From NCBI GenBank assembly GCA_050013395.1, contig JBEKFI010000006.1:12303-76302 (forward strand): a DNA stretch of 64,000 nucleotides. Reading direction: 5' to 3'. This DNA comes from Verrucomicrobiia bacterium. Its GTDB lineage: Bacteria > Verrucomicrobiota > Verrucomicrobiia > Palsa-1439. Below the pieces are notes generated by a model that was not told the DNA's origin, searched no databases, and saw nothing but the letters and a program-made list of their open reading frames with translations. Each line of letters opens with the position of its first letter. Within the stretch, counting starts at the first letter, position 1. Shown one piece after another: positions 12,118-63,290 of this stretch. The position numbers and the translations under genes are program-made.

Positions 12118-13711
12118 CACCTGGTTTTGGAACGCATTGCTTCTTGCGCTGCTTGTCTGGCAGGCGGCCGTGCTGTCGCTGCACATCAACCGCCCGTGGA
12201 CGGGCCATCACGACTGGAATGGCTTCCTGTGGTCTCAGGCGGCGCACAATCACCTGCTCGCGGGACTGCGCAGCACGCTGGGCGCATCTGCTTGGAACCA
12301 TTTCGGGCCGCCACCGATCCCGCCGGAGGCGTACTACGTTCATCATCCGCCCCTGCTGTCCTTGATTTTGGCGGCGCTTTTTGCCGTGCTCGGCGAACAC
12401 GAGTGGGTCGCCCGCCTCCTGCCGGTCAGTTTCTCAGTCGTCGGCGCGATGTTGCTGTGGCTGCTCGTGCGGGAAGCCGCCGGACCGCGCGCGGCCACGC
12501 TCGCGGTTGCTGTGTTTGCCGCCTGCCCGACGGAGTTGTACTTCGGCCAGATGGTCAATTTCGAGCCGCTGATGGCGGTGTGGATGTTGGGCGCGTTGTG
12601 GTGCCTCCGCCGTTGGCAACTGACCGCCAGCAGCGCGTACCTTGCAGCGGCGCTTGGCCTCGTAGCGCTCGGGCTGTGGACGGAATGGCCGATGTACATC
12701 CTGGCTGTGGTCCTCGCCGCAATGCTGCTGGCCCGACGACCGCCCGATTGGCGCGCGTCGGGCATGCTCACCGCAATCGCACTGGCTTCAGCCATGCTGT
12801 TTCTGTTGCACATTCGGCTGGTGTGCCCCGACGCTTGGCGGGATGCGCTCGGTCAGTTTGCGTTTCGGCTCAGCGCAGACCCCGGGCTGACGAGAGAAAG
12901 CGGGGCGACGTTCACGGCAGCGGAGTGGTTCGTCCGACAGGGCCGGTTTCTGACGCGCGGGATTTTGTGGCCGCTGTGGATTCTGGCGATTGCGGGCGCG
13001 GCGATGTGCTGGCGAAAACGGCTGACCTCGGACGGCCTTCGGTGGCTTGGCTGGGCTGCCCTGAACTTGTTCAGCATGCAGACAATTTATCTGGTTGTGT
13101 GGAGGAACGTCTCGTACACGCATGAGTACGCGAGCTTCTACTTTGTTCTGCCCGTGGCGATCATGGGCGGCGTTGCGTTGGATGGTTTGCTGGGCTGTGT
13201 GCAACAGCGGTGGAGTTCGAAACGTACGCACGTTGTGGCGCATTGCTTGCTGGTCGCTGCTGTTGTCGGGCTGTGCGGATGGGGTTATGCGCAGTCGCGC
13301 GTGTATCACCACCGTTATTACCTCCTCGAATGGGGCGAACCTGAGCCCGAAGACCTGATCCCGTCTCTTGGCCGAACGATTGCGCGGGCGTGTCCCGACG
13401 ACGCAATGATCATCTGCAATTTCCCGTGGATCTCGCCGCAACTGCAGTATTACGCCCGCAAAGAGATGGCCTTTCAGAAGACCGCGTACGCCGACTGGCA
13501 GCCTTATCTGGCGACCAACCGCGCCATTGGCGGTGTCATCTGGCAGGAAGCGCAAGGAGCGGCGGAATTACTCGCGGCGCTGCCGCCAGGCCACCGGGAA
13601 ATCGTCCGCTTTGGCCCCTATAGTTTCTGTCTGTGGCGGCCTGAATCTGCAGGCACGGGCAGATCGCAGGCGCGCAGCAGGGCAGCCAGCGCCTTGTCCG
13701 AATCGAAGTAA
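12101..13711 (+). CDS. GT-C fold glycosyltransferase, family 39 / ArnT-like membrane protein
   Basis: At least 10 predicted TM helices with the typical ArnT/PMT-like N-terminal topology. Sits next to the GT2 gene. Confidence 0.55.
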   Translation: MKSPRSTWFWNALLLALLVWQAAVLSLHINRPWTGHHDWNGFLWSQAAHNHLLAGLRSTLGASAWNHFGPPPIPPEAYYVHHPPLLSLILAALFAVLGEHEWVARLLPVSFSVVGAMLLWLLVREAAGPRAATLAVAVFAACPTELYFGQMVNFEPLMAVWMLGALWCLRRWQLTASSAYLAAALGLVALGLWTEWPMYILAVVLAAMLLARRPPDWRASGMLTAIALASAMLFLLHIRLVCPDAWRDALGQFAFRLSADPGLTRESGATFTAAEWFVRQGRFLTRGILWPLWILAIAGAAMCWRKRLTSDGLRWLGWAALNLFSMQTIYLVVWRNVSYTHEYASFYFVLPVAIMGGVALDGLLGCVQQRWSSKRTHVVAHCLLVAAVVGLCGWGYAQSRVYHHRYYLLEWGEPEPEDLIPSLGRTIARACPDDAMIICNFPWISPQLQYYARKEMAFQKTAYADWQPYLATNRAIGGVIWQEAQGAAELLAALPPGHREIVRFGPYSFCLWRPESAGTGRSQARSRAASALSESK

Positions 13712-14814
13712 TCCACTACGACCGCGCGTGCGGCGCGACAATGTTTTGCGTAGTCGGAGTTGATCTTCTCCACCGCCTCGACCACGTCGTCCTCGGCGCT
13801 GAAGGCAAACAGGCCTTCGCCGCACGGGATGATTTCGCTGAAGCCTGTGTCTTGAACGATGGCGGGTTTGCCTGACGCGAGATAAACCGCCGTGCGGTCG
13901 CTGAACCAGCCGCTGCGCGCCTTGACTTCCAGGTTCACCGCCACGCTGAATTCGCCGCGCGATTGCGCGATGTACTCGAGGTACGTCCACGGCGTGGCCG
14001 TTACCTTGAGCGGATTGGCGATGCGCCAACCGGCGGCGGCGATTTGCTCGCGCGGAGCGTTCGGCCCGGCCAGGGCGATTTCAAACATTGGCCCGACCCG
14101 CTTGGGCAAATCGAAGATCCGTATGAACTCGACGTCCTTCTGCCCGTACTCCTCGCCATTGTAAATGACCGGTTTGCGCGCGCTCCAGCTCATGATTGTC
14201 GTGAAGAACTTCGCCTCCGGTGTAAACCGCGGCGTCACCAACTCCAGCGCCATCGGCCAGCGGGTTGGACGCCAGTTCAGGCCGTGCGTCGGGATCGGGC
14301 AATCCACCTTGCCGATGCGCTCGCCGATGGTGAAATGAAATTGAAAATCGTACGGCGAGGCGTAGCCGTCGCAGGACGGCGCAGGCGTGGCAGGCATGCC
14401 GAACTGCGTGAAGCCGGGATCGGCATCCCAAAAGATGCGCTTCTTGCAGTCGCGAAACTGATCCAGCCAGGTCACGGCCGCTACGCTGAGCAGGAAATCG
14501 GCGTCGCAGCAAACGCGTCCCAATTCCTCGCGCGACATGCCGTGGTAATTGCCGTCCGCGTCCACGTAGCACCATCGGTTCACGCCGATCTTTTCGAACG
14601 CGCGGCGCAGCTCGGCGATGCCGTAGGTCGGATCATTGGTCGAGCTGTTGGTGCGCGGGTCATAACACGAGGACGGCCATCCGTACTGCTCGGCGAACAC
14701 CACCTCGTAGCCAAGCCTCTGCAACCCGACGAGAAAATGGAGCTGGGAAAGCACATGGCCGCCCAGCGGGTAGCGCACCAGATAACCGGCGACAATGGCC
14801 ACCGGCTTGCTCAT
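13618..14814 (-). CDS. CgeB-like glycosyltransferase family protein (paralog 1)
   Basis: The C-terminal segment FSDRTAVYLASGKPAIVQDTG...GEGLFAF resembles the CgeB / Glyco_trans_1_2 domain. Tandem paralog of 14811..16016. Confidence 0.45.
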   Translation of the reverse strand: MSKPVAIVAGYLVRYPLGGHVLSQLHFLVGLQRLGYEVVFAEQYGWPSSCYDPRTNSSTNDPTYGIAELRRAFEKIGVNRWCYVDADGNYHGMSREELGRVCCDADFLLSVAAVTWLDQFRDCKKRIFWDADPGFTQFGMPATPAPSCDGYASPYDFQFHFTIGERIGKVDCPIPTHGLNWRPTRWPMALELVTPRFTPEAKFFTTIMSWSARKPVIYNGEEYGQKDVEFIRIFDLPKRVGPMFEIALAGPNAPREQIAAAGWRIANPLKVTATPWTYLEYIAQSRGEFSVAVNLEVKARSGWFSDRTAVYLASGKPAIVQDTGFSEIIPCGEGLFAFSAEDDVVEAVEKINSDYAKHCRAARAVVVDYFDSDKALAALLRACDLPVPADSGRHRQKL

Positions 14815-16016
14815 ACGCCGACGCGCTCCAGCATCGCCCCCAACACCTTGCGCGCGTCAAACATCTGCTCGGCTATTCCGCGGGCTGCGGCACTGTGCCT
14901 CGCGTAATCGGCATTGATGTGATCGATGCCCGCGATCGCTTCTTCCGCCGTGCTGAACGCAAAAAGCCCGTTGCCGGTCGGATAAATCTTGCTCCAGTCT
15001 GTGTCCTGCAACACGCAGGGTCGCCCGAGCGCCAGATAACACGCGCTGCGGCAACTGAACCAGCCGCTGCGCGATTTGACGTAGCCTTCCTTGGCCACGC
15101 TCCATTCGCCCTTGGAGTTGCCCAAGTAATCGCGGTAGGTCCACGGATCAGGGAGATGCTCGCTCGGCTCGATGATCCGCCAGCCTTTTTGTTGGAGGAG
15201 TTCTGTCGGCCGCTTCATGCCCGGCCCCATGCCCATCGCGATCTCAAACTTCTGCGTCGTCTTCTGAGGCAGGTCAATAAACTTCATGAACTCGACATCT
15301 TTTTGTCCCCAGGTCTCTCCGCCGTACTCGCAGCCCTTGTAAGAAACCCAGTTCATCACCGTGGTGAATACATCGCGGACATCTTCCGTGGGAGCGGCGT
15401 CCCCGCCGCGATTCTGGCCCGGTCGCGGCGGGGACGCCGCTCCCACAAACGGCCACCAATCCAGCACGATCGGCTGGCGCGTCGGAATCCATTTCAATCC
15501 TGCCATCGGCACACGGCAATCAGGCGCTCCGATGTTCTCGGCGAACGTGAAATGAAAATCGTGGGCGTGGATGCGATCGATCACGCCTTGGTTGCCCGAC
15601 ACCAGCGCCACCTGCGTGAACATCGGATCGGAATCGATAAAAACCTTTCTGGGGATTGCGACGTACTCCGGCCGCAACCAGCCGCAGCCGGACACGTTCA
15701 GGTAAACGTCGGCGCTGGCGCAGAATTTCCTGGCCTCGGCCTCGCTAACGCCATGGTAACTGCCGTCGGGCGCGTTGCGGTAAATCCAGCGGTCGCCGAG
15801 GCTGAGCCGGTTCATCACGTCGCCGAGATACTTGACGTTGTAGCTGCAATCGTCGCTGACGGTGTTCTTGATCGGGTCGTACGGCCACGTCTCCGTGTCT
15901 TCGAGATACCACACCTCATGCCCGAGCAGGCGAAATCCCTCGACATACTGCAGGTAATCCCACGCCACCCCGCCGAACGCATACTGCCCGACCAGCCCTG
16001 TCACAATGATCCGCAT
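14811..16016 (-). CDS. CgeB-like glycosyltransferase family protein (paralog 2), carrying an in-frame palindromic-element insertion
   Basis: Same family as 13618..14814. Contains the extra segment GAASPPRPGQNRGGDAAPT, encoded by the palindromic element at 15388..15446, which is absent from the paralog. Confidence 0.45.
   Translation of the reverse strand: MRIIVTGLVGQYAFGGVAWDYLQYVEGFRLLGHEVWYLEDTETWPYDPIKNTVSDDCSYNVKYLGDVMNRLSLGDRWIYRNAPDGSYHGVSEAEARKFCASADVYLNVSGCGWLRPEYVAIPRKVFIDSDPMFTQVALVSGNQGVIDRIHAHDFHFTFAENIGAPDCRVPMAGLKWIPTRQPIVLDWWPFVGAASPPRPGQNRGGDAAPTEDVRDVFTTVMNWVSYKGCEYGGETWGQKDVEFMKFIDLPQKTTQKFEIAMGMGPGMKRPTELLQQKGWRIIEPSEHLPDPWTYRDYLGNSKGEWSVAKEGYVKSRSGWFSCRSACYLALGRPCVLQDTDWSKIYPTGNGLFAFSTAEEAIAGIDHINADYARHSAAARGIAEQMFDARKVLGAMLERVGV
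15388..15446. repeat. RPE-like palindromic element (23-bp inverted termini GTGGGAGCGGCGTCCCCGCCGCG) inserted in-frame in a CDS
   Basis: Near-perfect inverted repeat gtgggagcggcgtccccgccgcg ... cgcggcggggacgccgctcccac. The same termini occur at 48106..48175. Confidence 0.7.
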
Positions 16017-16190
16017 GCCGCCCAGTTTATACCGTGCCGCCGTCCAGCCGACAACAAGTCAGTGCAGCCGCCGCTAAAGCGATCCGTGCACGGTCAGGAA
16101 ACCGGCGCACAACGGGTTGACACGCAACTATGCGGAGTCTAATCTGCCGGTCGACTTTTTCATAATATTGCTGTTAGGTTTTGATGAATG

Positions 16191-16497
16191 TATGAAATGT
16201 CCTTATTGTGAGCATGAGCTTCCGCTGACTTGGCGTCGATATTGGAAGTCGCCTTTTGGTCGCCACCTTTGCCCTAGTTGCAGTCGGCGCTCTAAGTTCG
16301 AGGTGAGCGTGTTGTATTGTCTGCTCCTTCTGCTCGGTGCGGCGGTGGGAGGAGTTCCGTTGTCACTGTTGTTCCACACGTGGAGGGGAGGCCATTGGTG
16401 GATTATGGGTTGGGTTGTCGGAGGTCTGCTCACGTGCATCCCGTTCGACAAATACTTGGAGACGAGACATAGAACACTCGTGAAGATGGAGACCTAA
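16191..16497 (+). CDS. Hypothetical zinc-ribbon membrane protein
   Basis: CPYC...CPSC zinc-ribbon motif followed by two hydrophobic helices. Lies in a lower-GC region. Confidence 0.3.
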
Positions 16498-16547: not shown

Positions 16548-16632
16548 AACCCTCACCCTGACCCTCTCCCTTGGAAAGGGAGAGGGGAAATCTCCTCGCC
16601 CCGCATGCGGGGAGAGGACCAAGGTGAGGGGC
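16548..16632. repeat. ~90-bp nested palindromic intergenic element (copy 1 of 4)
   Basis: CCCTCACCCTGACCCTCTCCC ... GGGAGAGG..GGTGAGGG with internal hairpins. Related copies at 37092, 61711 and 63197. Confidence 0.75.
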
Positions 16633-17021: not shown

Positions 17022-17573
17022 CTAACGATAGGTCTTGTCGTCGACACGGCTTAGGTCGATTCCGTCCTTGAAAACTCCGACCGTCACGACAGCGAAGGTG
17101 AACACGCTGGTACCGGCCTCCAGGTGCCCGCCGAACGCCTTGTCGGCGTCGGTCATGGTGAGGTGGGCATGAACGCGGCCGTCGATCACATATCCGTTCA
17201 TGCTCACGATGTCGGCCGGGCCCGCGGGGTTTTTCACGTAGATGTTCTTGGAGGGGAAGGTTCCATTGCTGACCGTGTGGAAATGATAGCTCCGGACCGA
17301 TCCGGCTGCCGCCAGGATCACGGCGTTGCGGATCTTGTGCTGTTTCACCATGCGCTCCAGACCTGCAAGAAGGTCGGTTTGATTCTTGAAGCGCAGCACC
17401 AAGACCCGCTCGAATTGCCCGCTGAGCGCATACACCTCCGGCACCGTGTCGCTGTTCGGTTTCGAATCCTCCGCCGGCGTGGTGGCGTTGGTCACCTCGG
17501 TGCGGGTCGGTTGGGCTGCCGCCGTGCTCATGATCGCCAGAAAACCTAGAATCTGAATCAGTCTACGCATGGG
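17022..17573 (-). CDS. DUF296 / PPC (PCC) domain protein with signal peptide
   Basis: Signal-peptide-like N-terminus MRRLIQILGFLAIMSTAAA. The C-terminal region resembles PPC-domain proteins. Confidence 0.5.
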   Translation of the reverse strand, partial: PMRRLIQILGFLAIMSTAAAQPTRTEVTNATTPAEDSKPNSDTVPEVYALSGQFERVLVLRFKNQTDLLAGLERMVKQHKIRNAVILAAAGSVRSYHFHTVSNGTFPSKNIYVKNPAGPADIVSMNGYVIDGRVHAHLTMTDADKAFGGHLEAGTSVFTFAVVTVGVFKDGIDLSRVDDKTYR

Positions 17574-17729
17574 ATGTCTCCTTGTTCGGTGGATGATGGT
17601 TGAGCCGTATCGTTCATAAACTTGTCCTTGCGAGCCTGTGTGAACTAGGAGCGCATCGTCGCGGCAAGAATGCCGCTCCCACAACGATACAGTTTGTCCG
17701 CACAGCAAGCAGCTCGTGCAATGCACGGG

Positions 17730-31090: not shown

Positions 31091-31198
31091 AGCGCCGCTA
31101 CATCGGCACGACGAAGGTTCTGGAGAGGATCGAAATGTAGCCGCACCCTTCAGGGTGCGCTCGTCGGCATCTGAACCCGCGCAGGCTGAAGCCTGCGG

Positions 31199-34100
31199 CT
31201 ACGGAACCAATCGGATGCGGTAGAAGCGCGAAGGCGCGGTGGTCGCGGCACCTATGTCAAGATAGTTGGTGGTCGCGTCGCCACTGTCGGGAATGATAAT
31301 CAGTCCGCTGATGTCACTGAAGTTGGTCGTGAAACTGCCGTCGGCGTCGGAGCCGGCCGCCTGCACCGCATTGGTCCGCCCGCCCGCCGTCATCCAAGTG
31401 ATCTCCACATCGTCGCCTTCCTGCACGATGCCGGTAATGCGCAGCCCTGACGCGCTGTTGGTCGGATCGGTGCCGGCCTGAAACTCCTGTAGGTTGGTGA
31501 GTCCGTCGCCGTCGGGGTCGCCACTCGCGCCATCGTTGCCGCTCGAAGACTTCGGATTGAGACCGTAATTCATCTCCCAAACGTTCGGGAGGCCATCACC
31601 GTCGGGGTCGCCGTTGGAACCATTGGCCCCCGTGGGGTCGAACATGTCAAGTCCGTTTGCCAACTCCCAACCGTTTGGCAATCCATCGGCGTCCGCATCG
31701 AAGGACGAAACATAATTGACGCTGAGGAAGAAGACTGTTCCGCCGGTATGTATGAACCGGGAGCAGGCATTGGTCACGACCAGTCGGTCCACCACGAGCG
31801 CGCCGCCGCTGACTGTGAACGTGCCGCCGCGAACGTCCAGCGTTGCGGTGTGCGCCGCGTTAGTAACGTACAGTTTCCCGCCGGCGAGCGTTACCACGCC
31901 CGCTCCGCCGCCGCTGCAGTTCCCGATGACGAAATCGGACGACACTGTGTTGGTGCCACCGACCTGTGTGAATCTGCCACCCGCCGAGGCAGTGATGTCA
32001 CTCACATGCAAACTGCGAGCGAGGACGGTGCCGTTGGATTGTGTTAAGAACCCCGTCTCGGGCAGACCAACCGTGATCGTTCCATTGGTGACAAGTAACT
32101 GACCGCCCGTGATCCAGACTGTCGAGGTGCTGCCCGAGTTGAATTGCCCCATGGCTAGATCGTTTTGAACGGTAAGCTTACCGCCTGCGACAAGAAGCGT
32201 GGGGGAAGATTGATACGATGCTTGGAGCGCGACACCGCGCGCCAGCATATTGCCGTTAGAGACTACCAACGTGCCACGGCTCTGGCCGATGATCACGTCT
32301 CCGTTTGTCACGGTGAGCTGTCCGCCGGTCACCCACACCGTGCCTGTTGCACTCTCGCGCGCAATCCGCAGTTCGGAGCCAAGGGTCATGGTGCCGCCTG
32401 CAACGGTCAGCGTTCCCTTCCCGCCAAGATAGCCAACGCCGTAGTAACCGAAGTCGGTCGTGACAATGCCGTTGGATACGACGATCTGGCCGAAGGTGTT
32501 GTAGTTGCCGAAGAACACAGGCGCGTCGAAGTTTCCACCATTGACAGTGACGATGGCGGGGGCCGATGGGTTGGTGTTTCCGATGTTTAAATAGCGAAAC
32601 GCAGGCGAGATCAGAGTCCCTCCGGTCATCACGTCGAGGCTGCCGCGGACGCTCGCCCCGTTACAACGCAACTCGCCGCCGTTTACCGTGATCTTTCCAC
32701 GCGGATCGGCCAAAGTCCCGACAAGCATTTGCGCGTTGGCGATGGCCAGCACCCCGCCGTCAATTCTCACGGCTCCGTTGGCAACGGTGAGGTTGCTGGT
32801 GTAGGTGCCGCCATTGACCTGCACAGTCGAGTTCGTGATAATCAACAAGCCATTCGTGCTGATCGTGCACTGATTGATAATAGTCAGTGGCGTGTTCGTG
32901 CCCGCATTGGACAGCAGCAATGTATTCGTCGAGCCGGTCGGCGAGGAAAGCGCCAGGTTACTGATCGTCATCGTGCTGGGAAAACTTCCTGATGTACTCG
33001 CATCAATCGTGACAGTCTTGGTGGTGGCGTTGGTGATCAACACCGCCGAGCGACTGGTGGAAGGAACCCTCCCGAACGCCCAGTTGTCGCTGCCTTCCCA
33101 TTTGTCGCTGCCTGTATTGGTCCAGCGACTTTGGTCAGGCGGATGAGACGCCGCGTTGTTCGGCTGCGTGCCCGCTTGGTATTCTTCGAAATTGCTGAAC
33201 CCGTCCCCATCCGGATCGCCACTGGCTCCGTCGTTGCCCGCAGCGGAAAGCGGGTTCAATCCGTACGCGGTTTCCCAACCATTCGGCAGACCGTCGCCAT
33301 CCGCATCGCCGTTGATGTCGAGGGTGGTGGCACTGGCTTGGTTGCTGTAGTCGGAATTCCCTCCCGAGTTATACGCTCGGACGCGGTACCAGTAGGTCGT
33401 GGTCGCCGACAATCCTGTGTCGCTGTAGATCGTAACGTTGCTCGACACGGTTGCGATCTGCGTCCACGTCCCGGGCGTGCCGCTGTTGTCGGGGGCGCGC
33501 TCGATCTTGAAGCCGTCCTCGTTGGCCGCGTTATCCGTCCACCCTAGGTTGATCTGATTGATGGATACCGCCGTTGCTGTCAGACTCGACGGCGGCGCGG
33601 GCGGAAGTGGCAGAGTCGTCGCGCTCGCTTGGTTGCCATACGGCGAATTGCCGCCGGTGTTGTAGGCTCGGACGCGATACCAGTACTTCGTGTCCGCCGA
33701 CACATTCGTGTCGCTGTAGGTCGTGACATCCGCGCCTACAGTTGCGATCTGCGTCCAAGTACCCGGAACTCCGCCATTGTCTGGTGCCCGCTCGGTCAAA
33801 AAACCGGTCTCGTCGCTGGAGTTATCAGTCCATGACAAGTTGATCTGGTTCGTAGAGACGGCGATCGCTGTGAGGGCGGTCGGGGCGGCGGGACTGCACG
33901 TCATCGCGAGACCATGGTACTCACCCGCGGCGATGCTCACCACGCCCATCAATCCATCCGGCGGCGTTATCGAAGTGCCCCAGCTAACGACCGTGCCTTC
34001 ACCTGTCAACGCCAAATTGTAAGAACCGCTGGTGCTGATGGCGACAACGTTGGTCAAACCGTTGGGCGGCGTTGCCTGGCCCTGATCGTTGCGACCCCAA

Positions 34101-36181
34101 CCGACGACGGTGCCATCGCCCTTGAGCGCGAGGCTATATTCATCGCCTGCGGCAACGGCGACAACTCCCGTCAGTCCGGCCGGCGGCGTAGCTTGGCCAT
34201 AGTAATTGTTCCCCCAGCCAACAACGGTGCCATCGCTCCTGAGCCCGAGCCCGTGGATGTCGTAGCCTTTGGCGATGGCGACAATGCCGCTCAATCCTGG
34301 AGGCGTCACGTCACCGTAAGCTCCCCAACCGACGACGGTGCCATCGCTCCGAAGCGCCAAGCTGTCCCAGAAACCGGCGGCTATGGCGACCGCGTTCGTC
34401 AGTCCTGCGGGAGGCGTCGCTTGCCCGTAGTAATTCCAGCCCCAACCGACAACGCTGCCATCGCTTTTGAGAGCAAGGCTGTAGAGGCCACCGGCGGCAA
34501 TAGCAACCACATTCGTCAGCCCGGGCGGAGGCGTCGCTTGTCCGTAGTCATTCGCTCCCCACCCGGCGACATTGCCGCTGCTTGACAAGGCCAAACTATG
34601 GTAACCGCCACCGGAGACAGCCACCACTCCTGTTAGACCGATCGGAGGTGTCGCGTAACCTTCCCAAACAACAATGGCCGGCGGGCACAAGGCCGAGGTG
34701 TTGGTGACCGTGACGCCGGAATAGTCCGAGCTAGTTACAGAATTATACGCCTGCACGCGGTAATAATGAGTGGTGTCGGGGAACAGCCCGGTATTGCGAT
34801 AACTTGTCGTATTAGCTAATACCTGCGCGATCTGCGTGAAGTTCGTCCCGTCGGTGGAACGCTCGATCTTGAACCCGTCCTCGTCGCCGGAGTTATCGGC
34901 CCACGACAAGTTGATCTGGCTACTGGAAACTGTTGTTGCCGTCAGACCCGATGGAGGCGCAAGCGGCGTGGTGGCACTCACTTCGTTGCTGCAGTCTGAA
35001 TTCCCGCCCCCATTGTAGGCCCGCACCCGATACCAATAGGTCGTGTTCGGCAATAGCTCCGTGTCGCTGTGGTTGGTGACATTCGCGCCCACAGTCGTAA
35101 TTTCCGCCCAAGCGCCCGGAACACCACCATTGTCCGGCGCCCGCTCGATCTTGAAGCCATCCTCGTTGTTGGAGTTGTCGGCCCATGACAGATTGATCTG
35201 ATTGGTGGACACGGCTGTCGCCGTCAGAGCTGAGGGAGCAAGAGGCGGTGTCGTAGCGTTTGCTTGGTTGCTGTAGGTAGAATCACCGCCCGTGTTGTAC
35301 GCCCGCACCCGGTACCAATACTTCGTGTCCGCCGATGCTGTCAGATCACTGTAGGCGGTAACGTTCGAACCGACGGTCGCAATCTGCGTCCACGCGCCTG
35401 GAACGCCGCCGATGTCGGGCGCCCGCTCGATCTTGAAACCGTCCTCGTTGCCGGAGTTATCCGTCCACGACAAGCTGATTTGGTTCGACGAGACAGTGCT
35501 CGCAGTGAGGCTCGACGGTGCGGCTGGCGGCAGCGGCAAGGTAGTGGCGCTGGTCTGGCTGCTGTAGGCTGAATCACCGCTCCCGCTGGATGCGCGAACA
35601 CGGTACCAATACTTCGTGTTTGGTGATAACGGGGTGTCGCTGTAAGCCGTAACGTTGCTCGACACGGTTGCGATCTGCGTCCACACGCCCGGAGCACCAC
35701 TGCTGTCTGGAGCGCGTTCGATTTTGAAACTGCTCTCAGTGTTCGAGTTGTCCGTCCAAGACAGGTTGATCTGGTTGGTGGAGATGGCTGTCGCCGTGAG
35801 ACTCGATGGAGGCGGTGGCGGAGTGGTCGCACTGGCCTGGTTGCTGTAGGCGGAATCACCGCCGTTCTTGTACGCGCGCACACGGTACCAGTATCTCGTG
35901 TCCGCTGACACTCCCGTGTCGCTGTAGCTCGTGATATTCGCGCCCACGGTAGCGATCTGCGTCCAAGGTCCGGGAATGCCGCCGTTATCCAACGCCCGTT
36001 CGACCTTGAAGCCGGTCTCGTTGTTGGAGTTGTCCGTCCAAGACAGGTTGATCTGGTTGGTGGAGACGGCAGTGGCCGCCAGGTTCGTCGGCGCTTTCGG
36101 AGCGGCGTGGGCAGAGGAATAAAACGCGGTGAGCCAGAGGAACAGGCCGCATACCGACCAGCATTGAAGGTGCTTCTTCAT
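31199..36181 (-). CDS. Giant secreted/surface protein with fibronectin type III repeats, RCC1-like beta-propeller repeats, thrombospondin type-3-like Ca-binding repeats and beta-helix-like repeats
   Basis: Signal peptide MKKHLQCWSVCGLFLWLTAFYSSAHA. At least 8 FN3-like units (NLSWTDNS..GFKIERA..WYRVRAYN). RCC1 blades (GY.HSLAL..DG.V.GWG.N.YGQ). DADGDGLPNGWE Ca-binding loops. Total length 1660 aa. Confidence 0.7.
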   Translation of the reverse strand: MKKHLQCWSVCGLFLWLTAFYSSAHAAPKAPTNLAATAVSTNQINLSWTDNSNNETGFKVERALDNGGIPGPWTQIATVGANITSYSDTGVSADTRYWYRVRAYKNGGDSAYSNQASATTPPPPPSSLTATAISTNQINLSWTDNSNTESSFKIERAPDSSGAPGVWTQIATVSSNVTAYSDTPLSPNTKYWYRVRASSGSGDSAYSSQTSATTLPLPPAAPSSLTASTVSSNQISLSWTDNSGNEDGFKIERAPDIGGVPGAWTQIATVGSNVTAYSDLTASADTKYWYRVRAYNTGGDSTYSNQANATTPPLAPSALTATAVSTNQINLSWADNSNNEDGFKIERAPDNGGVPGAWAEITTVGANVTNHSDTELLPNTTYWYRVRAYNGGGNSDCSNEVSATTPLAPPSGLTATTVSSSQINLSWADNSGDEDGFKIERSTDGTNFTQIAQVLANTTSYRNTGLFPDTTHYYRVQAYNSVTSSDYSGVTVTNTSALCPPAIVVWEGYATPPIGLTGVVAVSGGGYHSLALSSSGNVAGWGANDYGQATPPPGLTNVVAIAAGGLYSLALKSDGSVVGWGWNYYGQATPPAGLTNAVAIAAGFWDSLALRSDGTVVGWGAYGDVTPPGLSGIVAIAKGYDIHGLGLRSDGTVVGWGNNYYGQATPPAGLTGVVAVAAGDEYSLALKGDGTVVGWGRNDQGQATPPNGLTNVVAISTSGSYNLALTGEGTVVSWGTSITPPDGLMGVVSIAAGEYHGLAMTCSPAAPTALTAIAVSTNQINLSWTDNSSDETGFLTERAPDNGGVPGTWTQIATVGADVTTYSDTNVSADTKYWYRVRAYNTGGNSPYGNQASATTLPLPPAPPSSLTATAVSINQINLGWTDNAANEDGFKIERAPDNSGTPGTWTQIATVSSNVTIYSDTGLSATTTYWYRVRAYNSGGNSDYSNQASATTLDINGDADGDGLPNGWETAYGLNPLSAAGNDGASGDPDGDGFSNFEEYQAGTQPNNAASHPPDQSRWTNTGSDKWEGSDNWAFGRVPSTSRSAVLITNATTKTVTIDASTSGSFPSTMTISNLALSSPTGSTNTLLLSNAGTNTPLTIINQCTISTNGLLIITNSTVQVNGGTYTSNLTVANGAVRIDGGVLAIANAQMLVGTLADPRGKITVNGGELRCNGASVRGSLDVMTGGTLISPAFRYLNIGNTNPSAPAIVTVNGGNFDAPVFFGNYNTFGQIVVSNGIVTTDFGYYGVGYLGGKGTLTVAGGTMTLGSELRIARESATGTVWVTGGQLTVTNGDVIIGQSRGTLVVSNGNMLARGVALQASYQSSPTLLVAGGKLTVQNDLAMGQFNSGSTSTVWITGGQLLVTNGTITVGLPETGFLTQSNGTVLARSLHVSDITASAGGRFTQVGGTNTVSSDFVIGNCSGGGAGVVTLAGGKLYVTNAAHTATLDVRGGTFTVSGGALVVDRLVVTNACSRFIHTGGTVFFLSVNYVSSFDADADGLPNGWELANGLDMFDPTGANGSNGDPDGDGLPNVWEMNYGLNPKSSSGNDGASGDPDGDGLTNLQEFQAGTDPTNSASGLRITGIVQEGDDVEITWMTAGGRTNAVQAAGSDADGSFTTNFSDISGLIIIPDSGDATTNYLDIGAATTAPSRFYRIRLVP

Positions 36182-36522
36182 TTCTCTCACCCAATCTCGT
36201 CGCGACCGAAGACTGATACGCCGAATCCTAACGAGCGGGGTAGGGGCTAGCAGTTTACTGGTTTCGAGTCGAGCGAAAACTGGCGTTCGGCGAGGTTTCC
36301 AAAGTGGACGGGAGACCTTCGGTCGAAGACGGTGCGCGGTCAGGAGACCGGCGCACAACGTCACGACACGCTTCATTTGGAGGGCTACGCTCCGTCGTGG
36401 CCGCCGGAACATCACGGACGCGACGGAGAGCGCGTCCCTCCAACCAGCCGAGCGAATCAACTGTGCCGGAGTACCGGCTTTTGCTTTTCAGGCTACGACC
36501 GGTCGGCTAAGGTTCTCCCGCC

Positions 36523-37083
36523 ATGCAGCCGATGCGCGACGACCTCGAAGAAATCCTGATCACCGAACAGCAAATCCAGCAGCGAATGGATGCGTTGGCG
36601 TTGGAAATCCAGTGCGAGTATGCGGCGAAAGATTTGACGTTGGTGGCAGTGCTGACAGGCAGCGTGATGTTCATCGCCGACCTGTTGAGACGATTGCCGA
36701 TGCAGCTCCGGTTCGATTACATCGGCGTTTCCAGTTACCAAGGCGAGACGCGTTCGACGGGCGATCTCATCGTCACCAAAGCCTTGACCTTGGACGTCCG
36801 CGGACACGACGTGCTCGTGGTGGACGATATTCTCGACACGGGACTGACGTTGGTGAAAATCCGCGAGATGATTCTCAAGCTGCAGCCGCGCAGCCTGAAG
36901 TTCGGCGTTTTTCTGGAGAAGGACGTCCCTCACCATGAAGGGTTTCAAGCCCACTTTGTCGCCTTCCGCATCCCGGACAAGTTCGTCGTCGGCTACGGAC
37001 TGGACTATCAGGAGCGGTACCGCAACCTGCCGTATGTGGCGACGCTCCGACCCGAAGTAACCAGTCATGGAGATGCGATCTAA
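36523..37083 (+). CDS. hpt: Hypoxanthine-guanine phosphoribosyltransferase
   Basis: PRPP-binding motif VLVVDDILDTGLT and overall Hpt-like sequence. Length 186 aa. Confidence 0.85.
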   Translation: MQPMRDDLEEILITEQQIQQRMDALALEIQCEYAAKDLTLVAVLTGSVMFIADLLRRLPMQLRFDYIGVSSYQGETRSTGDLIVTKALTLDVRGHDVLVVDDILDTGLTLVKIREMILKLQPRSLKFGVFLEKDVPHHEGFQAHFVAFRIPDKFVVGYGLDYQERYRNLPYVATLRPEVTSHGDAI

Positions 37084-37091
37084 GATGTCGG

Positions 37092-37172
37092 CCCCTCACC
37101 TTGATCCTCTCCCCCGAGCGGGGAGAGGAATTCCCCTCTCCCTTTTCGCAAGGGAGAGGGTCCGTGTGAGGG
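37092..37172. repeat. ~90-bp nested palindromic intergenic element (copy 2 of 4)
   Basis: CCCCTCACCTTGATCCTCTCCCCCGAGCGGGGAGAGG...CCCTCTCCCTTTTCGCAAGGGAGAGGGTCCGTGTGAGGG. Confidence 0.75.
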
Positions 37173-37233: not shown

Positions 37234-37863
37234 ATGACCATCACCGTCCAATTCTTCAGTTTTCTGCGCCCACTTGTTGGGCAGAATGAACTACAACTTG
37301 AAGTCGCGCCAGAATCGACCGTGGCCGATGCGCTGGCTGAGTTACACCGCCGGTTCCCCAAGCTGAAGGAAGCGGAGAAGACCACGCTGATCGCGGTCGG
37401 CGTCGAGTTTGCGAAGCCCAAGGACAGGCTGCGCGACGGCGACGTGCTTGCGTTAATGCCGCCGCTGCATGGCGGTGCGGACGACGAACTTCTCATCACC
37501 GACCAGCCGATCCATCCAGTCGAAGCGCACGTCGGCCCGGCCGTAGGCGACGTGGGCGGTATTGTCGTGTTCTGGGGGGTCGTGCGCGACATCGAAGAGA
37601 GTCAACAAATCACGGCGCTCGATTACACCGCCTACCGCGAAATGGCCGAGCACCAGTTCCGCAACTTGCTCGCCGAGACGCGCAAGAAGTGGCCGCTCAA
37701 ACGCATCCGCGTCGTTCATCGTCTCGGCGTCATCCCCGTCGGCGAGCCGTCGCTGTTGGTGCGCGTCGAAGCCGCTCACCGCGGCGAAGCGTTCGCCGCG
37801 GCGCAGTTCATCATTGACGAACTGAAACAGAAAGTCCCGATCTGGAAACGCGGCGCTACTTGA
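37234..37863 (+). CDS. Molybdopterin synthase MoaD-MoaE fusion protein
   Basis: N-terminal MoaD-like ubiquitin fold ending in PPLHGG, then a MoaE catalytic-subunit-like domain. Confidence 0.75.
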   Translation: MTITVQFFSFLRPLVGQNELQLEVAPESTVADALAELHRRFPKLKEAEKTTLIAVGVEFAKPKDRLRDGDVLALMPPLHGGADDELLITDQPIHPVEAHVGPAVGDVGGIVVFWGVVRDIEESQQITALDYTAYREMAEHQFRNLLAETRKKWPLKRIRVVHRLGVIPVGEPSLLVRVEAAHRGEAFAAAQFIIDELKQKVPIWKRGAT

Positions 37864-38182: not shown

Positions 38183-38391
38183 CTCACCGCTCTTTGTCAT
38201 TCTGAGCGAAGCGAAACCGCTGCTGGCCGTCTGTCGTTCGACGGCAAATCTCTGCTGTTTCTCGCAGTCTCCGGAACGACTGAGACCCTTCCCCTTCGCG
38301 GACTCAGGGCTTCGGCTCACGACACTCAGGGTGACAAAACCAAAGTGGCGGGCACTCCTCAAGCACGGTTTTGGCGAAAGGGTGCGACCCT

Positions 38392-43058: not shown

Positions 43059-43345
43059 CGCTCAAACGCTCTGACGATCCGTTTATTTGTCCGAACTGCG
43101 GTGCAGATGTGCCGGCCGGAGCGAAGGCGTGTCCTGAGTGTGGATCGGATGAAAAGACCGGTTGGTCCGACAAAACCATCTACGACGGGACTGGCATCGA
43201 AGACCCGGACGAAGACGATTTCAACTACGAAGATTGGAGGCGGCGCGAGTCTGGCGGCGCACCCCACAAGAGCAGTATGGGCTGGCTCTGGTGGCTCGTG
43301 GCAGTGGTGGTGTTGGTGATGGTTGTGTGGTTGATGATTAGGTAG
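43055..43345 (+). CDS. Zinc-ribbon protein with C-terminal TM helix
   Basis: CPNCG...CPECG zinc-ribbon motif. C-terminal helix WLWWLVAVVVLVMVVWLMI. Confidence 0.4.
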   Translation: MTLKRSDDPFICPNCGADVPAGAKACPECGSDEKTGWSDKTIYDGTGIEDPDEDDFNYEDWRRRESGGAPHKSSMGWLWWLVAVVVLVMVVWLMIR

Positions 43346-43425
43346 GGGCGGACCGCCGGGCCGCCCGCAACTTGATGACAATCGGACACGGCGCGCCCGG
43401 CGGTCGCGCCCTACCCGAGATGTTG

Positions 43426-45627: not shown

Positions 45628-48600
45628 ATGAAACATTCTGACTTCGTCCATCTGCACCTGCACACCGAGTACAGCCTGCTCGATGGGGCGTGCCGCATTG
45701 ACGACGTGGTGGAGAAGGCGCACGCGGCAAAGATGCCGGCGGTGGCGATCACCGATCACGGCAACATGTACGGCGCGATCGATTTCTACAAGGCGGCGTC
45801 GGAACGCGGCATCAAACCGATCATCGGCTGCGAGGCGTACATCGCGCCGGGCAGCCGGCTCGACAAGAAATCCAGCAACGCGCGGGACGCGGCGTATCAT
45901 CTGGTGCTTCTGGCCAAGGACGAGGTCGGCTACAAGAATTTGATCAAGCTCATCACGGCGGCGCATCTCGAAGGGTTTTACTACAAACCGCGCATCGACA
46001 AGGAAATTCTGGCGCAACACGCGAAAGGGCTGATCGGGTTCACGTCCTGCCTCAAGGGCGAGGTGCCGAACAAGATCAAAGATGAGCAGATCGAACAGGC
46101 GAAGGCCGCGCTGGACGAGTACCGCCACATTTTCGAGCCGGGCGATTATTACGTCGAACTCCACAATCACGGGATTGAAGATCAACGAAAGGTCAATCGC
46201 GTGCTCATCGAATGGGCCAAGGAATTCAACCTGCCGCTTGTGGCGACCAACGACGTGCATTACATCGAGCGCAAGGATTGGGAGGCGCATGATTGCCTGA
46301 TTTGTTTACAGACGCAATCGCTGGTGGCCGACGAGAAGCGGATGCGGTACGCGGCCCAGCAGTTTTATCTGCGCACGCCGGAAGAGATGCACGAATTGTT
46401 CAAGGAGACACCGGAGGCGATCCGCAACACTCTGGCGGTCTCCGAGAAATGCAACGTGCTTCTGGAGTTCGGCAAACTTCGGTTTCCCGTTTATCAGCCG
46501 CCCGAGGGGTTGGGCCGCGAACAATACCTACGGCAGTTGTGCGAACAGGGATTGCGGGAACGCTATGGTATCGAATGGAAGAAACCGAAGTCCGAACAGG
46601 AAAAGGCCCTCATCGAACGGTTGGAATACGAACTGAAGGTGATCGAGAAGACCGGGTTCGCCAGTTATTTCCTGATCGTCTGGGACTTCGTACATTTCGC
46701 CAAGAGTAAAGCCATTCCGGTCGGACCGGGCCGCGGCAGCGCCGCAGGCAGTCTCGTGGCGTACCTGTTGCGCATCACCGACATCGATCCGTTGCGGTAC
46801 AACCTGCTATTCGAGCGGTTCCTCAATCCCGAGCGCGTGTCGCCGCCCGACATCGACATGGATTTCTGTTACAACCGGCGGCCCGAGGTCATCGATTACG
46901 TCCGCCACAAATACGGCAACGATCACGTGGCGCAGATCATCACGTTCGGCACGCTCGGCGCCAAGATGGTCGTGCGCGACGTGGGCCGCGTGCTGGGATT
47001 GAGCTACGGCGAATGCGACCGCATCGCGAAGATGATCCCACCCGACATCGGGATGACACTGGCGAAAGCGCTGGACATCAGTCCCGAACTCAAGAACGCC
47101 TATCAAAACGAAGACATGGTGCGGCGCGTGATCGGCTACGGGTTCACGCTCGAAGGTCTCGCGCGCAACGCCAGCACGCACGCGGCGGGCGTGGTCATCG
47201 GTGCCGAACCATTGATCAATGTCGTGCCCCTGACCACCGGGACGAACTCGAATGAAGTCGTCACGCAGTACTCGATGAACCCGCTTGGCGATCTCGGATT
47301 GCTGAAGATGGACTTCCTCGGGCTGAAAACGCTGACCGTCATCAAGGACGCGCTCGATCTCGTCGAGCAAACGACGGGCAAGCGCATCGACATCGACAAG
47401 ATTCCGCTCGACGACGCGAAGGCGTTCGACCTGCTCAACAAGGCCAATACTATCGGCGTGTTCCAGCTTGAATCACAGGGGATGCGCGATCTGTGCCGGC
47501 GCATTGGGGTGGACTCGATTGACGTGATCATCGCGCTGATCGCGCTGTTTCGTCCCGGGCCGATGAACATGCTCGACGATTACGTGAACCGCAAACACGC
47601 GAAGACGAAGGTCGAGTACGATCATCCGCTGCTGGAGCCGATCCTGAAGGAGACATTCGGCGTGTTCGTGTATCAGGAGCAGGTCATGCAGGCGGCCAAC
47701 GTGCTGGCGGGATACTCGCTCGGCGGCGCCGATATTCTGCGACGCGCAATGGGGAAGAAAAAGCCCGCCGAGATGGAGAAGCAGCGCGAGGTCTTCATCA
47801 AGGGTTGTCACGAGAAAAACAAAATCCCGCGCGGCAAAGCAGAGAGAATCTTCGAGACACTCGCCAAGTTTGCCGGGTACGGCTTCAACAAGTCGCACAG
47901 CGCGGCGTACGCGGTCGTCGCCTACCAGACCGCGTGGCTGAAGGCGAATTACCCGGTCGAGTTCATGGCGGCGTTGCTATCCAACGAACTGGCCAACACC
48001 GACAAAATCCGGCTTTTCATCAACGAATGCCGCCGCATGGGCATTGAAGTGTTGCCGCCCGACGTGAACCAGAGCGGCGTGCGGTTTACGGTGCATCTTC
48101 GCAGTGTGGGAGCGGCGTCCCCGCCGCGACCGGTGGCCGGGCCTGAGACAATCGCGGCGAGGACGCCGCTCCCACAAGACAAGGAGCCTACTAAAGCAAA
48201 ACATCATCAAGGCGCGCGACGCAGGCGGAAAACTCAAATCGTTCAGCGACTTCTGCGAGCGCGTGGACCTGCGCATGGTCAATCGCAAGGTGCTGGAAAG
48301 CTTGGTGAAGTGCGGCACGTTCGATTCGCTCGATCCGCAGCGCGCGCGGCTGTATGCGGAGATTGACTACCAGATGAATCGCGCCAGCAGCCTCCAACGC
48401 GACCGCGAACGCGGACAGGCAGCGCTGTTCGACGTCGAGCCGGTCAACGCGCGCAAACAGGCGACCGGTAAACCGCCCGAGGTCGAGTGGTCGCAAAGCG
48501 AGATGCTGGCGTTTGAGAAGGAACTGCTGGGCTTTTACGTCACAGGACACCCGTTGTCGCAATACGCGGACATCCTTCGTCGCTACGAGTTGGCGTCGTC

Positions 48601-49783: not shown

Positions 49784-50212
49784 ACGGCCAGTTTAGAAAG
49801 GGGCTTCAGCGGATGCAAGCTCGCTGTCGCATTTGGAGAAACGTTATAGAGCCGAGCGACGCACCCCGAAGGCATGTGAGCCTCGCGATTTGATTGATCG
49901 CGCCGTCGAAGTCTGCAAATACCGGAGAGAACCCATCCGATTAACGCAGGACGTACTGGATTTGGCTTGGGATGGGTATTTCGGCGCGTCTGTAAGTGGC
50001 TAACCCGCATATTTCACACGCCCGTGTGAAATATGCGCCCGCAGGGCCGACCCCGACACACAGAGTGTGTCGGCCTCGGGAGCGCCGCGCCCCCACGCGC
50101 GGCGCTCCCGAGGTGGACACTTCACGACTACCTACTGGCAGGTGTGAAATATCCAAGCTAAGCATTGGCAAAATTGACGGACGCGACTTAACCTGCTATA
50201 TAAGGAACACAA

Positions 50213-60415: not shown

Positions 60416-61131
60416 TCAAAGTGGATTTGCACATGCACTCGGGAGAAGACCCGGAGGATGGACTGAAGTATCCGGCAACGGCGTTGATTGACAAGGCGGT
60501 CGAACTGGGCTTCAGTGCAATCGCCATCACGCTTCACGGCAAGGTGCTGGAGGACGAGCGCGTGTTCGAATACGCACAGCGGAACGGGCTGCTGCTCATC
60601 CGGGCGGTCGAGTGGAACATCCTGGGCCGCGACGTACTGTTGTACAACATCACGCAGCGCGAGGCGGAGAAGCTACAGACATTCAAAGACCTGCGTGCCC
60701 ACAAGCGTGAGCGCGGTGAAGATCTTCTGGTCGTCGCGCCGCACCCGTTTTACCCGAAGGGCCACAGCCTCGGACGCGAGTTTGAGCGTAACATCGACTT
60801 ATTCGACGCGGTCGAGTACGCGCAGATCCATTTCCCGTGGTTCGACGCGTTTAACCAGCGCGCGGTGCGCATCGCGCAGAAGCACGGCAAGCCGATCATC
60901 GCAAATTCGGACTCGCACAATGTCTGGATGTTTGGCCGGCACTACACCGTCGTCGATGCCGAGCCGACGATGCCTTCGATCTTTCGTGCCATTCGAGAGG
61001 GACGCATCGAACGGCACAGTCCCCACGTCTCGATCTGGGACTGCCTGCGCATGTTCGTGTTCGATCCGTTGCTAGAGCGTCAGCCCGGTCGCGTGATGGA
61101 GAGTTTTCCCAGCGCTCAGCCGGTGAAATAA
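60412..61131 (+). CDS. PHP (polymerase/histidinol-phosphatase) domain metal-dependent phosphoesterase
   Basis: N-terminal VDLHMHS, His/Asp-rich PHP motifs (HP..P; NSDSH). ATG overlaps the addA stop (ATGA). Confidence 0.6.
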   Translation: MIKVDLHMHSGEDPEDGLKYPATALIDKAVELGFSAIAITLHGKVLEDERVFEYAQRNGLLLIRAVEWNILGRDVLLYNITQREAEKLQTFKDLRAHKRERGEDLLVVAPHPFYPKGHSLGREFERNIDLFDAVEYAQIHFPWFDAFNQRAVRIAQKHGKPIIANSDSHNVWMFGRHYTVVDAEPTMPSIFRAIREGRIERHSPHVSIWDCLRMFVFDPLLERQPGRVMESFPSAQPVK

Positions 61132-63196: not shown

Positions 63197-63290
63197 ACCC
63201 CCTCACCTTGATCCTCTCCCCCGACGAGCGGGGGGCGAGGAGAATCCCATCGCCCTTGCTATGCAAGGGAGAGGGTCAGGGTGAGGGTTT
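63197..63290. repeat. ~90-bp nested palindromic element (copy 4 of 4) between lutA and lutB
   Basis: CCCCCTCACCTTGATCCTCTCCCCCGACGAGCGGGGGGCGAGGAG...CTTGCTATGCAAGGGAGAGGGTCAGGGTGAGGG. Confidence 0.75.

Follow-up and report, generated by a model that had tools for sequence, protein, structure and literature searches.

Nested palindromes of a Verrucomicrobiia contig are inverted pairs of the BoxC/PIT/TMECO repeat unit, one of them read in frame at the end of lutB

The BoxC repeats of Escherichia coli, later named PIT (potential intrastrand triplex) elements and then TMECO, have been on record since the 1990s, and neither their function nor their origin has, to our knowledge, been settled. Here, four nested palindromes of 81–93 bp are described from a 64,000-nt stretch of contig JBEKFI010000006.1 of a Verrucomicrobiia bacterium (the window; L-numbers denote related loci fetched for comparison), each of which is an inverted pair, or doublet, of the unit named BoxC, PIT, TMECO or HPG1. 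The E. coli unit is built of the blocks CCCTC(N)CCC, a loop, GGG(N)GAGGG, three nucleotides and again GGG(N)GAGGG, and is written as the TMECO pattern CCCTCNCCC-N3-6-GGGNGAGGG-N3-GGGNGAGGG, of which 3,610 copies were counted in 262 proteobacterial genomes, 23 of them in MG1655, all intergenic and including five inverted pairs (Holder et al., NAR 2015, PMC4666352). Read from the G-rich strand, the same repeats were described as HPG1 (GGGAGAGGGTTAGGGTGAGGG) and HPG2-type (GGGAGAGGGCCGGGGTGAGGG), with a C-rich block upstream and often as two copies on opposite strands separated by less than 50 bp (Kaplan et al., NAR 2016, PMC5100583). The E. coli triplex forms in vitro and was not detected in vivo by dimethyl sulfate (DMS) footprinting; promoter or terminator activity was tested and none was found, PIT elements stop DNA polymerase in vitro, TMECO loci are more variable among E. 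coli strains, and purine-motif triplexes are stated not to form in RNA (PMC4666352). Circular dichroism of E. coli HPG sequences gave K+-dependent G-quadruplex (G4) signatures (PMC5100583). Beyond these 2015 and 2016 papers, nothing later on BoxC function was found in the literature.

Reading of the window sequence bore out all four copies that the first-pass annotation had placed at 16548–16632, 37092–37172, 61711–61803 and 63197–63290, together with their inverted outer arms and internal sub-hairpins, two inner hairpins being present in every copy. The 21-nt arm GGGAGAGGGTCAGGGTGAGGG was matched eight times with at most three mismatches, as two inverted arms per copy (0.00 expected from 100 shuffles), and the core GGGAGAGG occurs 14 times in the window as against 1.55 expected. 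Copy 16548 is opposite in direction to the other three; once it is reverse-complemented, all four share one polarity with the left arm CCCCTCACCTTGRTCCTCTCCCC and the right arm GGGAGAGGGTCAGGGTGAGGGTT. The copies and their half units are as follows.

16548–16632, minus strand: doublet copy 1, spanning 81 nt from arm end to arm end, read left to right in canonical orientation on this strand
16550–16586, minus strand: right-type half unit of copy 1, CCCTCTCCC-TTTCCAA-GGGAGAGGG-TCA-GGGTGAGGG, relaxed TMECO pattern
16593–16630, plus strand: left-type half unit of copy 1, TCCTCGCCCC-GCATGC-GGGGAGAGGA-CCA-AGGTGAGGG
37092–37172, plus strand: doublet copy 2, half units 37093–37129 (minus) and 37134–37172 (plus)
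61712–61804, plus strand: doublet copy 3, 93 nt including a terminal C and TT, equal to 31 codons
61713–61753 (minus) and 61762–61802 (plus): half units of copy 3, relaxed TMECO pattern
63197–63290, plus strand: doublet copy 4, half units about 63200–63242 (minus) and 63247–63287 (plus)

The half unit reads CCCTCTCCC-loop-GGGAGAGGG-N3-GGGTGAGGG and forms a hairpin of 9–11 bp with one C-rich and one G-rich strand; the window arm GGGAGAGGGTCAGGGTGAGGG lies a single nucleotide from HPG1, the commonest arm in E. coli. The strict TMECO pattern with a first loop of 3–6 nt gave no match in the window, and for this reason the pattern was relaxed to a longer first loop with one mismatch allowed per block, a form that gave 0 matches in simulations. 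The hairpin of the C-rich 9-mer CCCTCNCCC and the complementary G-rich 9-mer GGGNGAGGG was thereby found in seven of the eight half units with at most one mismatch per block; the eighth (63200–63242), with one mismatch and one bulge, falls outside the relaxed pattern. The 9-mers stand 7–11 nt apart, compared with 3–6 nt in the published pattern, because extra pairs (TT..AA, CCG..CGG) extend the stems, the real loops being about 3–7 nt; judged from the sequence, the longer spacing is a variant and not a different architecture. The second loops are TCA, CCA or TCC, and the third block is GGGTGAGGG, AGGTGAGGG or GTGTGAGGG.

The likeness to the E. coli repeats thus extends to the same three blocks, to the presence of multiple copies and to the frequent pairing of two slightly different types in inverted orientation. 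The differences are that the host belongs to the Verrucomicrobiota and not to the Proteobacteria, that the doublet is here the copied unit, and that the tails point outward in the window, whereas those of the E. coli hrpB-mrcB pair, read directly in its sequence, point inward; pairs in Enterobacter (L036) and Pseudomonas (L005, L072) are outward like those of the window. Furthermore, E. coli copies were reported as always intergenic and as unstable, whereas members of the window family also lie in frame within genes and same-site copies are very stable among relatives.

A scan of 185,579 species genomes with the arm returned at least 120 loci where about one chance match is expected. Among the matches listed, exact arms occur in more than 15 phyla, with carriers in the Alpha-, Beta- and Gammaproteobacteria (including Enterobacter, Pseudomonas and Bradyrhizobium), in the Myxococcota, Desulfobacterota, Planctomycetota, Verrucomicrobiota, Acidobacteriota, Nitrospirota, Gemmatimonadota, Atribacterota and others, and in several closed Dehalococcoidia chromosomes of the Chloroflexota. 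Nearly all of these listed loci have CCCTCTCCC and a short loop upstream of the arm, and a perfect 9-bp complement lies 3–11 nt upstream in at least 87 of 124; the conserved entity is therefore the half unit. The reach of the motif far beyond the Proteobacteria is new here. In some Chloroflexota loci (L019, about 1468–2039; L088; L054), a stretch of 8 kb holds several variant-stem units at even intervals, which measure about 285 nt in L019; this suggests local arrays or repeated modules containing the unit.

Since the window derives from a metagenome-assembled genome (MAG), and contigs of relatives sometimes terminate within the repeat (L121, L128, L140), chance similarity or an assembly artefact was considered as a source of the four palindromes. 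We give this virtually no credence: eight arm matches stand against an expectation of zero, finished genomes of isolates, among them E. coli K-12, Archangium and Bradyrhizobium, also contain the repeat family, and independent metagenome assemblies from other samples carry the same elements at identical sites, namely copy 1 in L128, L130 and L152, the lutB copy in L121 and L122 and the lutA/lutB copy in L123, L137 and L145. This recurrence disposes of mis-assembly, which the first-pass annotation had named as a concern.

The fold under constraint was sought in an analysis anchored on the hairpins alone, with the sequence after each hairpin then inspected. Exactly one tail followed in 125 of 146 hairpins, and the third block was GGGTGAGGG in 30 of the 38 units outside the selection imposed by the scan pattern; the 3-nt linker of the units varies freely. 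Where the stem varies, the tail matches the reverse (mirror) of its own purine strand, with A or T opposite A as in purine-motif triads (the triad rule), and never a direct repeat of it. The variants are listed below.

Stem purine strand GGGGGAAGG, tail GGATGGGGG: L012
Stem purine strand GGGAGAAGG, tail GGATGAGGG: L018, L044, L096
Stem purine strand GGGAGAGGA, tail AGGTGAGGG: L019, L020, L062, L096 and the window arms at 16610, 37093 and 63200
Stem purine strand GGGAGGGAG, tail GAGGGAGGG: L033
Stem purine strand GGGGGAGGG, tail GGGTGGGGG: L094

In copy 1, the A at the stem end and the A at the tail start of the left-type unit covary as the triad rule demands. Since the third block is a mirror image of the stem's purine strand, a single DNA strand could fold as a hairpin with a purine-motif triplex, and the third block GGGNGAGGG of the window units would permit triads of the types G.G:C, A.A:T and T.A:T with the stem. 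The left and right arms in the window differ in such a way that the triads within each unit are kept, at the price of A.C mismatches where the outer arms face each other on the lut mRNA strand. Kaplan et al. proposed a switch in which the G-rich arm (G3N3G3N3G3N3G3) forms a G4 in competition with the hairpin and thereby controls the genes next to it; in favour of this, the right-type arm is a textbook G4 motif, and the E. coli sequences gave the circular dichroism signatures named above. For the window family we consider such a switch quite improbable: the triad-keeping variants AGGTGAGGG, GGATGAGGG and GGATGGGGG (stems GGGAGAGGA, GGGAGAAGG and GGGGGAAGG) break G3 tracts, three of the four left-type window arms have just two G3 tracts, and conservation in the third block extends to its central G and its A/T positions, which in a G4 would lie in loops. 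The covariation of variant tails thus favours a single-stranded-DNA triplex as the constrained fold over a G4 or an RNA hairpin, as far as sequence comparison can indicate, and constraint on single-stranded DNA is favoured because of the mirror-rule tails, the broken G3 tracts, the A.C mismatches on the lut mRNA and the statement that purine-motif triplexes do not form in RNA. The dominance of one particular 9-mer everywhere is left unexplained by triplex covariation.

When metagenomes were scanned for complete doublets bearing arms of the window type, the full listing comprised 57 loci, which together with the window copies represent 43 distinct genomic contexts, mostly from peat and bog samples. 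In this Verrucomicrobiia lineage the two units face each other with tails outward over 75–100 bp, between the constant termini (C)CCCTCACC and GGGTGAGGGTT. The hairpin type on the left goes with that on the right (long/long in 12 cases, short/short in 21, mixed in 8; Fisher p 2e-4), and because the two types are co-inherited, the doublet is copied as one piece. The presence of doublets in at least 43 unrelated contexts on related metagenome contigs answers the question whether the elements are confined to the four window sites, and it places the earlier description of them as REP/MITE-like or simply selfish DNA in broadly the right class.

Of the 43 contexts, 29 have a doublet whose length is divisible by three (p 5e-6), as have 21 of the 35 that were not verified as coding (p 1e-3), an excess that is partly non-independent, as the copies fall into subfamilies. 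Genes were called as the longest open reading frame (ORF), a crude procedure by which many calls of a doublet inside an ORF are spurious in GC-rich DNA, and for this reason only the cases supported by Pfam domains on both sides were counted.

L132: in-frame doublet in Mfd, which matches E. coli Mfd over its full length (36% identity)
L148: in-frame doublet in the Mpl ligase
L166: in-frame doublet in a class-I tRNA synthetase
L169: in-frame doublet in PrmC
L151 and L164: in-frame doublets in two GT4 glycosyltransferases

A UbiA gene (L172) probably carries an in-frame doublet as well. All eight supported in-gene cases, LutB of the window included, use the frame class xPH[LP]DPLP...GE[GD]QGEG in either orientation. 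Were the two open frames equally probable, such agreement would arise with a chance of 0.004; occurrences of the other frame are confined to unsupported ORFs and to sequence upstream of true starts. The in-frame doublets contribute 25–33 residues to conserved proteins. The intergenic-only rule of BoxC is therefore not followed here, copy 3 being translated in LutB and related doublets lying within Mfd, Mpl, tRNA synthetase, PrmC and GT4 genes, and what is new is a tail-outward, extended-stem, coding-compatible doublet of a known family, in-frame residence being unreported for BoxC. The nearest parallel in behaviour is that of the Rickettsia palindromic elements (RPE), which lie in frame in unrelated housekeeping genes and add a conserved peptide while the protein stays intact (summarised in PMC10969869). 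In contrast to the window type of 75–100 bp, which consists of a pan-bacterial BoxC unit in free-living Verrucomicrobia, RPEs are unrelated in sequence, about 150 bp long and confined to Rickettsia. As a separate observation, the Mfd gene of L132 (1665–5261) has a second insert, ARASRPFRSTPEYGRDARAT, at residues of about 866–886, which is absent in E. coli Mfd and looks like the translation of another palindromic repeat.

The genes next to the window copies are given below.

16117–16497, plus strand: gene left of copy 1, convergent with its right neighbour
17022–17726, minus strand: PCC-domain gene right of copy 1, convergent with its left neighbour
36523–37083: phosphoribosyltransferase gene (hpt-like), matching only a generic phosphoribosyltransferase domain and compatible with hpt
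37234–37863: moaDE (ThiS and MoaE fusion), by domain matches
61116–61694, minus strand: lutC, LUD domain, TTG start overlapping the lutB stop
61691–63181, minus strand: lutB, 496 aa, LUD, Fer4 and LutB_C domains
61691–61711, minus strand: native lutB end, six codons ANRGEH and the TGA stop (61691–61693), outside the element
63307–63999, minus strand: lutA, CCG domains

The claim that all copies sit at gene boundaries holds broadly, with copy 1 between convergent genes, copy 2 in the hpt-like/moaDE spacer and copies 3 and 4 at the lut junctions, copy 3 being translated within lutB. Copy 2 begins 8 nt past the stop of the hpt-like gene and ends 61 nt ahead of moaDE, and copy 4 lies within the spacer from the lutA stop (63307) to the lutB ATG (63181).

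Minus-strand translation of copy 3 (61712–61804) yields the 31-codon LutB tail NPHPDPLPYTAREREVPSSPPSAGGEDQGEG. The LutB sequence is 100% identical to NCBI protein P0001 from a Verrucomicrobiia MAG, and its predicted tryptic peptides include LNPHPDPLPYTAR and EVPSSPPSAGGEDQGEGANR. LutB homologues of the clade mostly have 463–464 aa and end few residues past a conserved F-x-x-W-W motif, their native ends (e.g., ...WWRGNHE* and ...WWRANRE*) resembling the ANRGEH end of the window. In this comparison of LutB C-termini, of the kind called for by the first-pass annotation, LutB of the window is about 32 aa longer than usual because of the in-frame doublet. The read-through of the element and its contribution of a tail (31 residues) were thus borne out, and the further claim that the element also provides the stop codon was not, since the last six codons and the TGA lie outside it. 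By its sequence, copy 3 is best described as an in-frame insertion just ahead of the native lutB end.

The lutABC gene order is the same in relatives (L121, L123–L125). In L124 and L125 the lutA/lutB site is empty and the lutA stop and the lutB start overlap as ATGA; in L125 the site at the lutB end is empty too, with the lutB end overlapping the lutC start. The lutA/lutB doublet (copy 4) occurs at the same site in L121, L122, L123, L137 and L145, and the lutB-tail doublet in L121 and L122 shares codon position and orientation with that of the window and has almost identical loops, one arm having decayed in L122. Although L123 is about as close to the window as L122 is (lutB coding DNA 87.3% and 85.5% identical, respectively), its palindrome at this point of lutB belongs to another family; those of L124 and L126 are of yet other families, and L126 has a GTAG-type palindrome at lutA/lutB. 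Among L123–L126, both lutABC junctions are thus empty in some relatives and otherwise occupied by at least four different palindrome families, and every lutB-tail insertion is stop-free and in frame. Identities between window and L121 were as follows.

lutB coding DNA: 75.2%, with 55% at codon position 3 and 87% at codon position 2
lutB-tail element: 93.5%
lutA/lutB element: 92.6%

Because same-site copies are conserved far above the third codon positions of lutB, a host function or copy correction is possible. One form of the former would be RNA elements that serve the host as decay barriers, RNase III sites or modulators of lutABC translational coupling, and likewise after the hpt-like gene. 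Copies do lie exactly at operon junctions, the junction copies are retained where lutB coding DNA is only 75–87% identical, both strands of all four copies fold as RNA at -55 to -76 kcal/mol (z -5.3 to -8.3), and units lie nearer to gene 3' ends (median 41–52 nt) than to 5' ends (114–118 nt), as measured with crude ORF calls. Nevertheless, we regard such a role as unlikely: the same element type resides within the Mfd, Mpl, class-I tRNA synthetase, PrmC and GT4 coding regions, the arm differences that keep the unit triads give A.C mismatches on the lut mRNA strand, the triplex is of a kind stated not to form in RNA, tests of the E. coli PIT revealed neither promoter nor terminator activity, and relatives with empty junctions retain the same operon. 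Additionally, neither a T-run, nor a terminator call, nor a match to an Rfam family speaks for such RNA elements. Terminator and promoter scans around all four copies called no element and found only TT(T) after the right arm. The terminator or stabiliser role suggested earlier for the elements was accordingly not sustained, given the lack of a usable T-run or terminator call, the in-gene copies and the mismatches on the lut mRNA. An intrinsic terminator in particular was rejected, there being no T-run behind the GC-rich hairpin and no terminator activity of the E. coli member (PMC4666352).

Rfam gave no match at gathering score in the window, and a scan of 18 loci returned tRNA and tmRNA only; at permissive E-values, the results were generic long hairpins like microRNA precursors and a weak resemblance to whalefall-1 (RF01762). 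The half units of copy 3 at 61712–61751 (minus) and 61760–61803 (plus) align to this family at 15–16 bits as against a gathering score of 37. The whalefall-1 consensus, CUCUCC-loop-GGAGAG...AGGGUGAGGA, is similar to a BoxC half unit, with a spacing of 24 nt in place of 3 nt as a difference, and the score of 15 bits is low. On account of this resemblance, the whalefall-1 metagenome "RNA motif" may be a relative of the BoxC-type repeat family, which we offer as a lead only.

A function or side effect at the DNA level has been proposed for TMECO in E. coli, by which a triplex or cruciform pauses replication or provokes recombination and repair and so creates hot spots of variation. The covariation pointing to a single-stranded-DNA triplex is in line with this, as are the polymerase block by PIT in vitro, the higher variability of TMECO loci among E. 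coli strains (PMC4666352) and the change of palindrome family from lineage to lineage in the lutB tail, at the lutA/lutB junction and in one loop of Mpl. The Mpl loop in question, GARxGQG/KxFVIEGDEYD, is a surface loop ahead of the conserved FVIEGDEYD motif and holds at least eight different repeat-derived peptides in different Verrucomicrobial lineages (L148, proteins P0121–P0240); the empty site was compared at the protein level only, the DNA being too diverged. However, different families at one site may equally mean a permissive site that was hit repeatedly, the same-site copies are unusually stable over long divergence, and no rearrangement breakpoints were found at the four window copies, with lutABC order conserved in L121 and L123–L125. 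We therefore consider a DNA-level function or side effect of this kind rather improbable for the window family. As an aside on Mpl, its base length is 445 aa and variants reach 550 aa, with other variable blocks near the N terminus and at the C terminus.

The reading that we prefer, and think probable without regarding it as secure, is that of a selfish, structure-constrained, non-autonomous repeat copied by an outside agent. We propose that the tail-outward doublet of 75–100 bp has spread round the genome of this Verrucomicrobiia lineage as one piece by an agent acting in trans, presumably as single-stranded DNA and without a dedicated function for the host. Insertions would land widely and be kept wherever the damage is slight, be it between genes, at the junctions of operons or within genes, survival within genes requiring a length that is a multiple of three and the reading of the stop-free, Pro/Gly/Glu-rich frame (PHxDPLP...GEGQGEG). 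The lutB copy would have inserted in frame six codons ahead of the native stop that overlaps the lutC start, and the lutA/lutB copy would have split the formerly overlapping stop and start (ATGA); insertions at the lutB/lutC junction may have been kept only if ribosomes still read through to the lutC start.

In this mode of spread the doublet resembles REPINs, the REP doublets mobilised by RAYT transposases, in which two inverted palindromic units make one long hairpin that is dispersed as a unit with no target-site duplication; the arms of the doublet are inverted repeats. In contrast to REPINs, the window doublet has no GTAG/GTGG head, no cognate RAYT was found in the 1.39 Mb of window and loci, and its unit sequence is common to many phyla, whereas REPs are lineage-specific. 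The tblastn search of this sequence with E. coli RayT gave one clear RAYT-like gene, in L162 (12448–13064), where the gene at 12522–12977 (minus strand) with HUH and Tyr motifs is flanked by the inverted pairs TTGTAGCCGCGAAA..TTTCGCGGC. This is a canonical REPIN-RAYT arrangement with its own GTAG-headed repeats, about 0.9 kb from a BoxC-type doublet and unrelated to it.

Several observations weigh against a selfish repeat. When the ORFs in the neighbourhood of the 57 doublets were clustered all against all, the recurrent families were generic ones (TPR, Lon, glycosyltransferases, ECF sigma factors and superoxide dismutase), and no linked transposase was found near doublets, a window-wide Pfam scan for transposases not having been made. 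There was no consistent target-site duplication across the 43 contexts; ATGA flanks both sides of two independent lutA/lutB insertions, which the keeping of stop and start by selection would explain equally. Strain-level polymorphism between filled and empty sites was not found, mobility being deduced from the pattern of dispersal alone, and the triplex of E. coli went undetected in vivo by DMS footprinting (PMC4666352). The excess of lengths divisible by three is weakened by the shared ancestry within subfamilies noted above. Moreover, decaying selfish DNA should not be conserved at 93% between same-site copies where lutB reaches 55% at third and 87% at second codon positions, and a lineage-specific selfish repeat would not explain why the same 9-mers dominate in more than 15 phyla. 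This strong same-site conservation and the constancy of sequence across phyla are not accounted for by our preferred reading, and the elements may have a function or be tied to some machinery.

Other palindromes were noted in the window. A second family lies at 15388–15446 and 48105–48176 (GTGGGAGCGGCGTCCCCGCCGCGA and its inverse, with arms of 24–25 nt that are 96–100% complementary), the former copy being in frame inside the ORF 14811–16016 (minus strand; ...VGAASPPRPGQNRGGDAAPTED...), and a related palindrome is in frame in the LutB tail of L124. This ORF and that at 13618–14814 (minus strand) are adjacent paralogues of about 400 aa with overlapping stop and start, of which only the one at 14811–16016 is the carrier of this in-frame palindrome. 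At 38196–38336 there is a palindromic element of about 140 bp of the type GTCATTCTGAGCGAAGC...CTCAGGGTGAC, to which GTCACCCTGA...TCAGCATGAC is related; the latter makes up the LutB tail of L123 and of several other homologues (...CHPDPAVVGEW...FRCAQHDKEEKR). Three more imperfect palindromes with arms of 21–24 nt occur at 31137–31202, 43341–43415 and 50067–50120, the first with a GTAG head (GTAGCCGCACCC...) as in classical REP/REPIN elements; a 1,753-aa ORF at 31199–36460 (minus strand) shows by eye fibronectin-III-like and RCC1-like repeats and Asp-rich, calcium-binding-like motifs.

For Verrucomicrobial proteins, these results advise caution in annotation, since Pro/Gly/Glu-rich tails and inserts of the kind PHxDPLP...GEGQGEG are derived from repeats and are not domain features. 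With respect to the G4 reading of HPG1/HPG2, covariation in the window family keeps triads and not G3 tracts. A bolder proposal, which we think less likely than not, is that BoxC is a pan-bacterial single-stranded-DNA module (hairpin with purine-motif triplex) kept by selection in more than 15 phyla, of which the Verrucomicrobiia doublet is an RPE-like, coding-compatible mobile element with a length divisible by three and a single favoured, harmless reading frame. If so, the doublet would repeatedly colonise permissive loops and tails of essential proteins as well as operon junctions, and the constancy of sequence together with the slower-than-synonymous evolution would imply a broadly conserved machinery that recognises, copies or repairs the structure. 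Taken together, the spread of the unit, its constrained fold, its conservation above the synonymous level and its RPE-like behaviour in one lineage provide four handles on the BoxC question.

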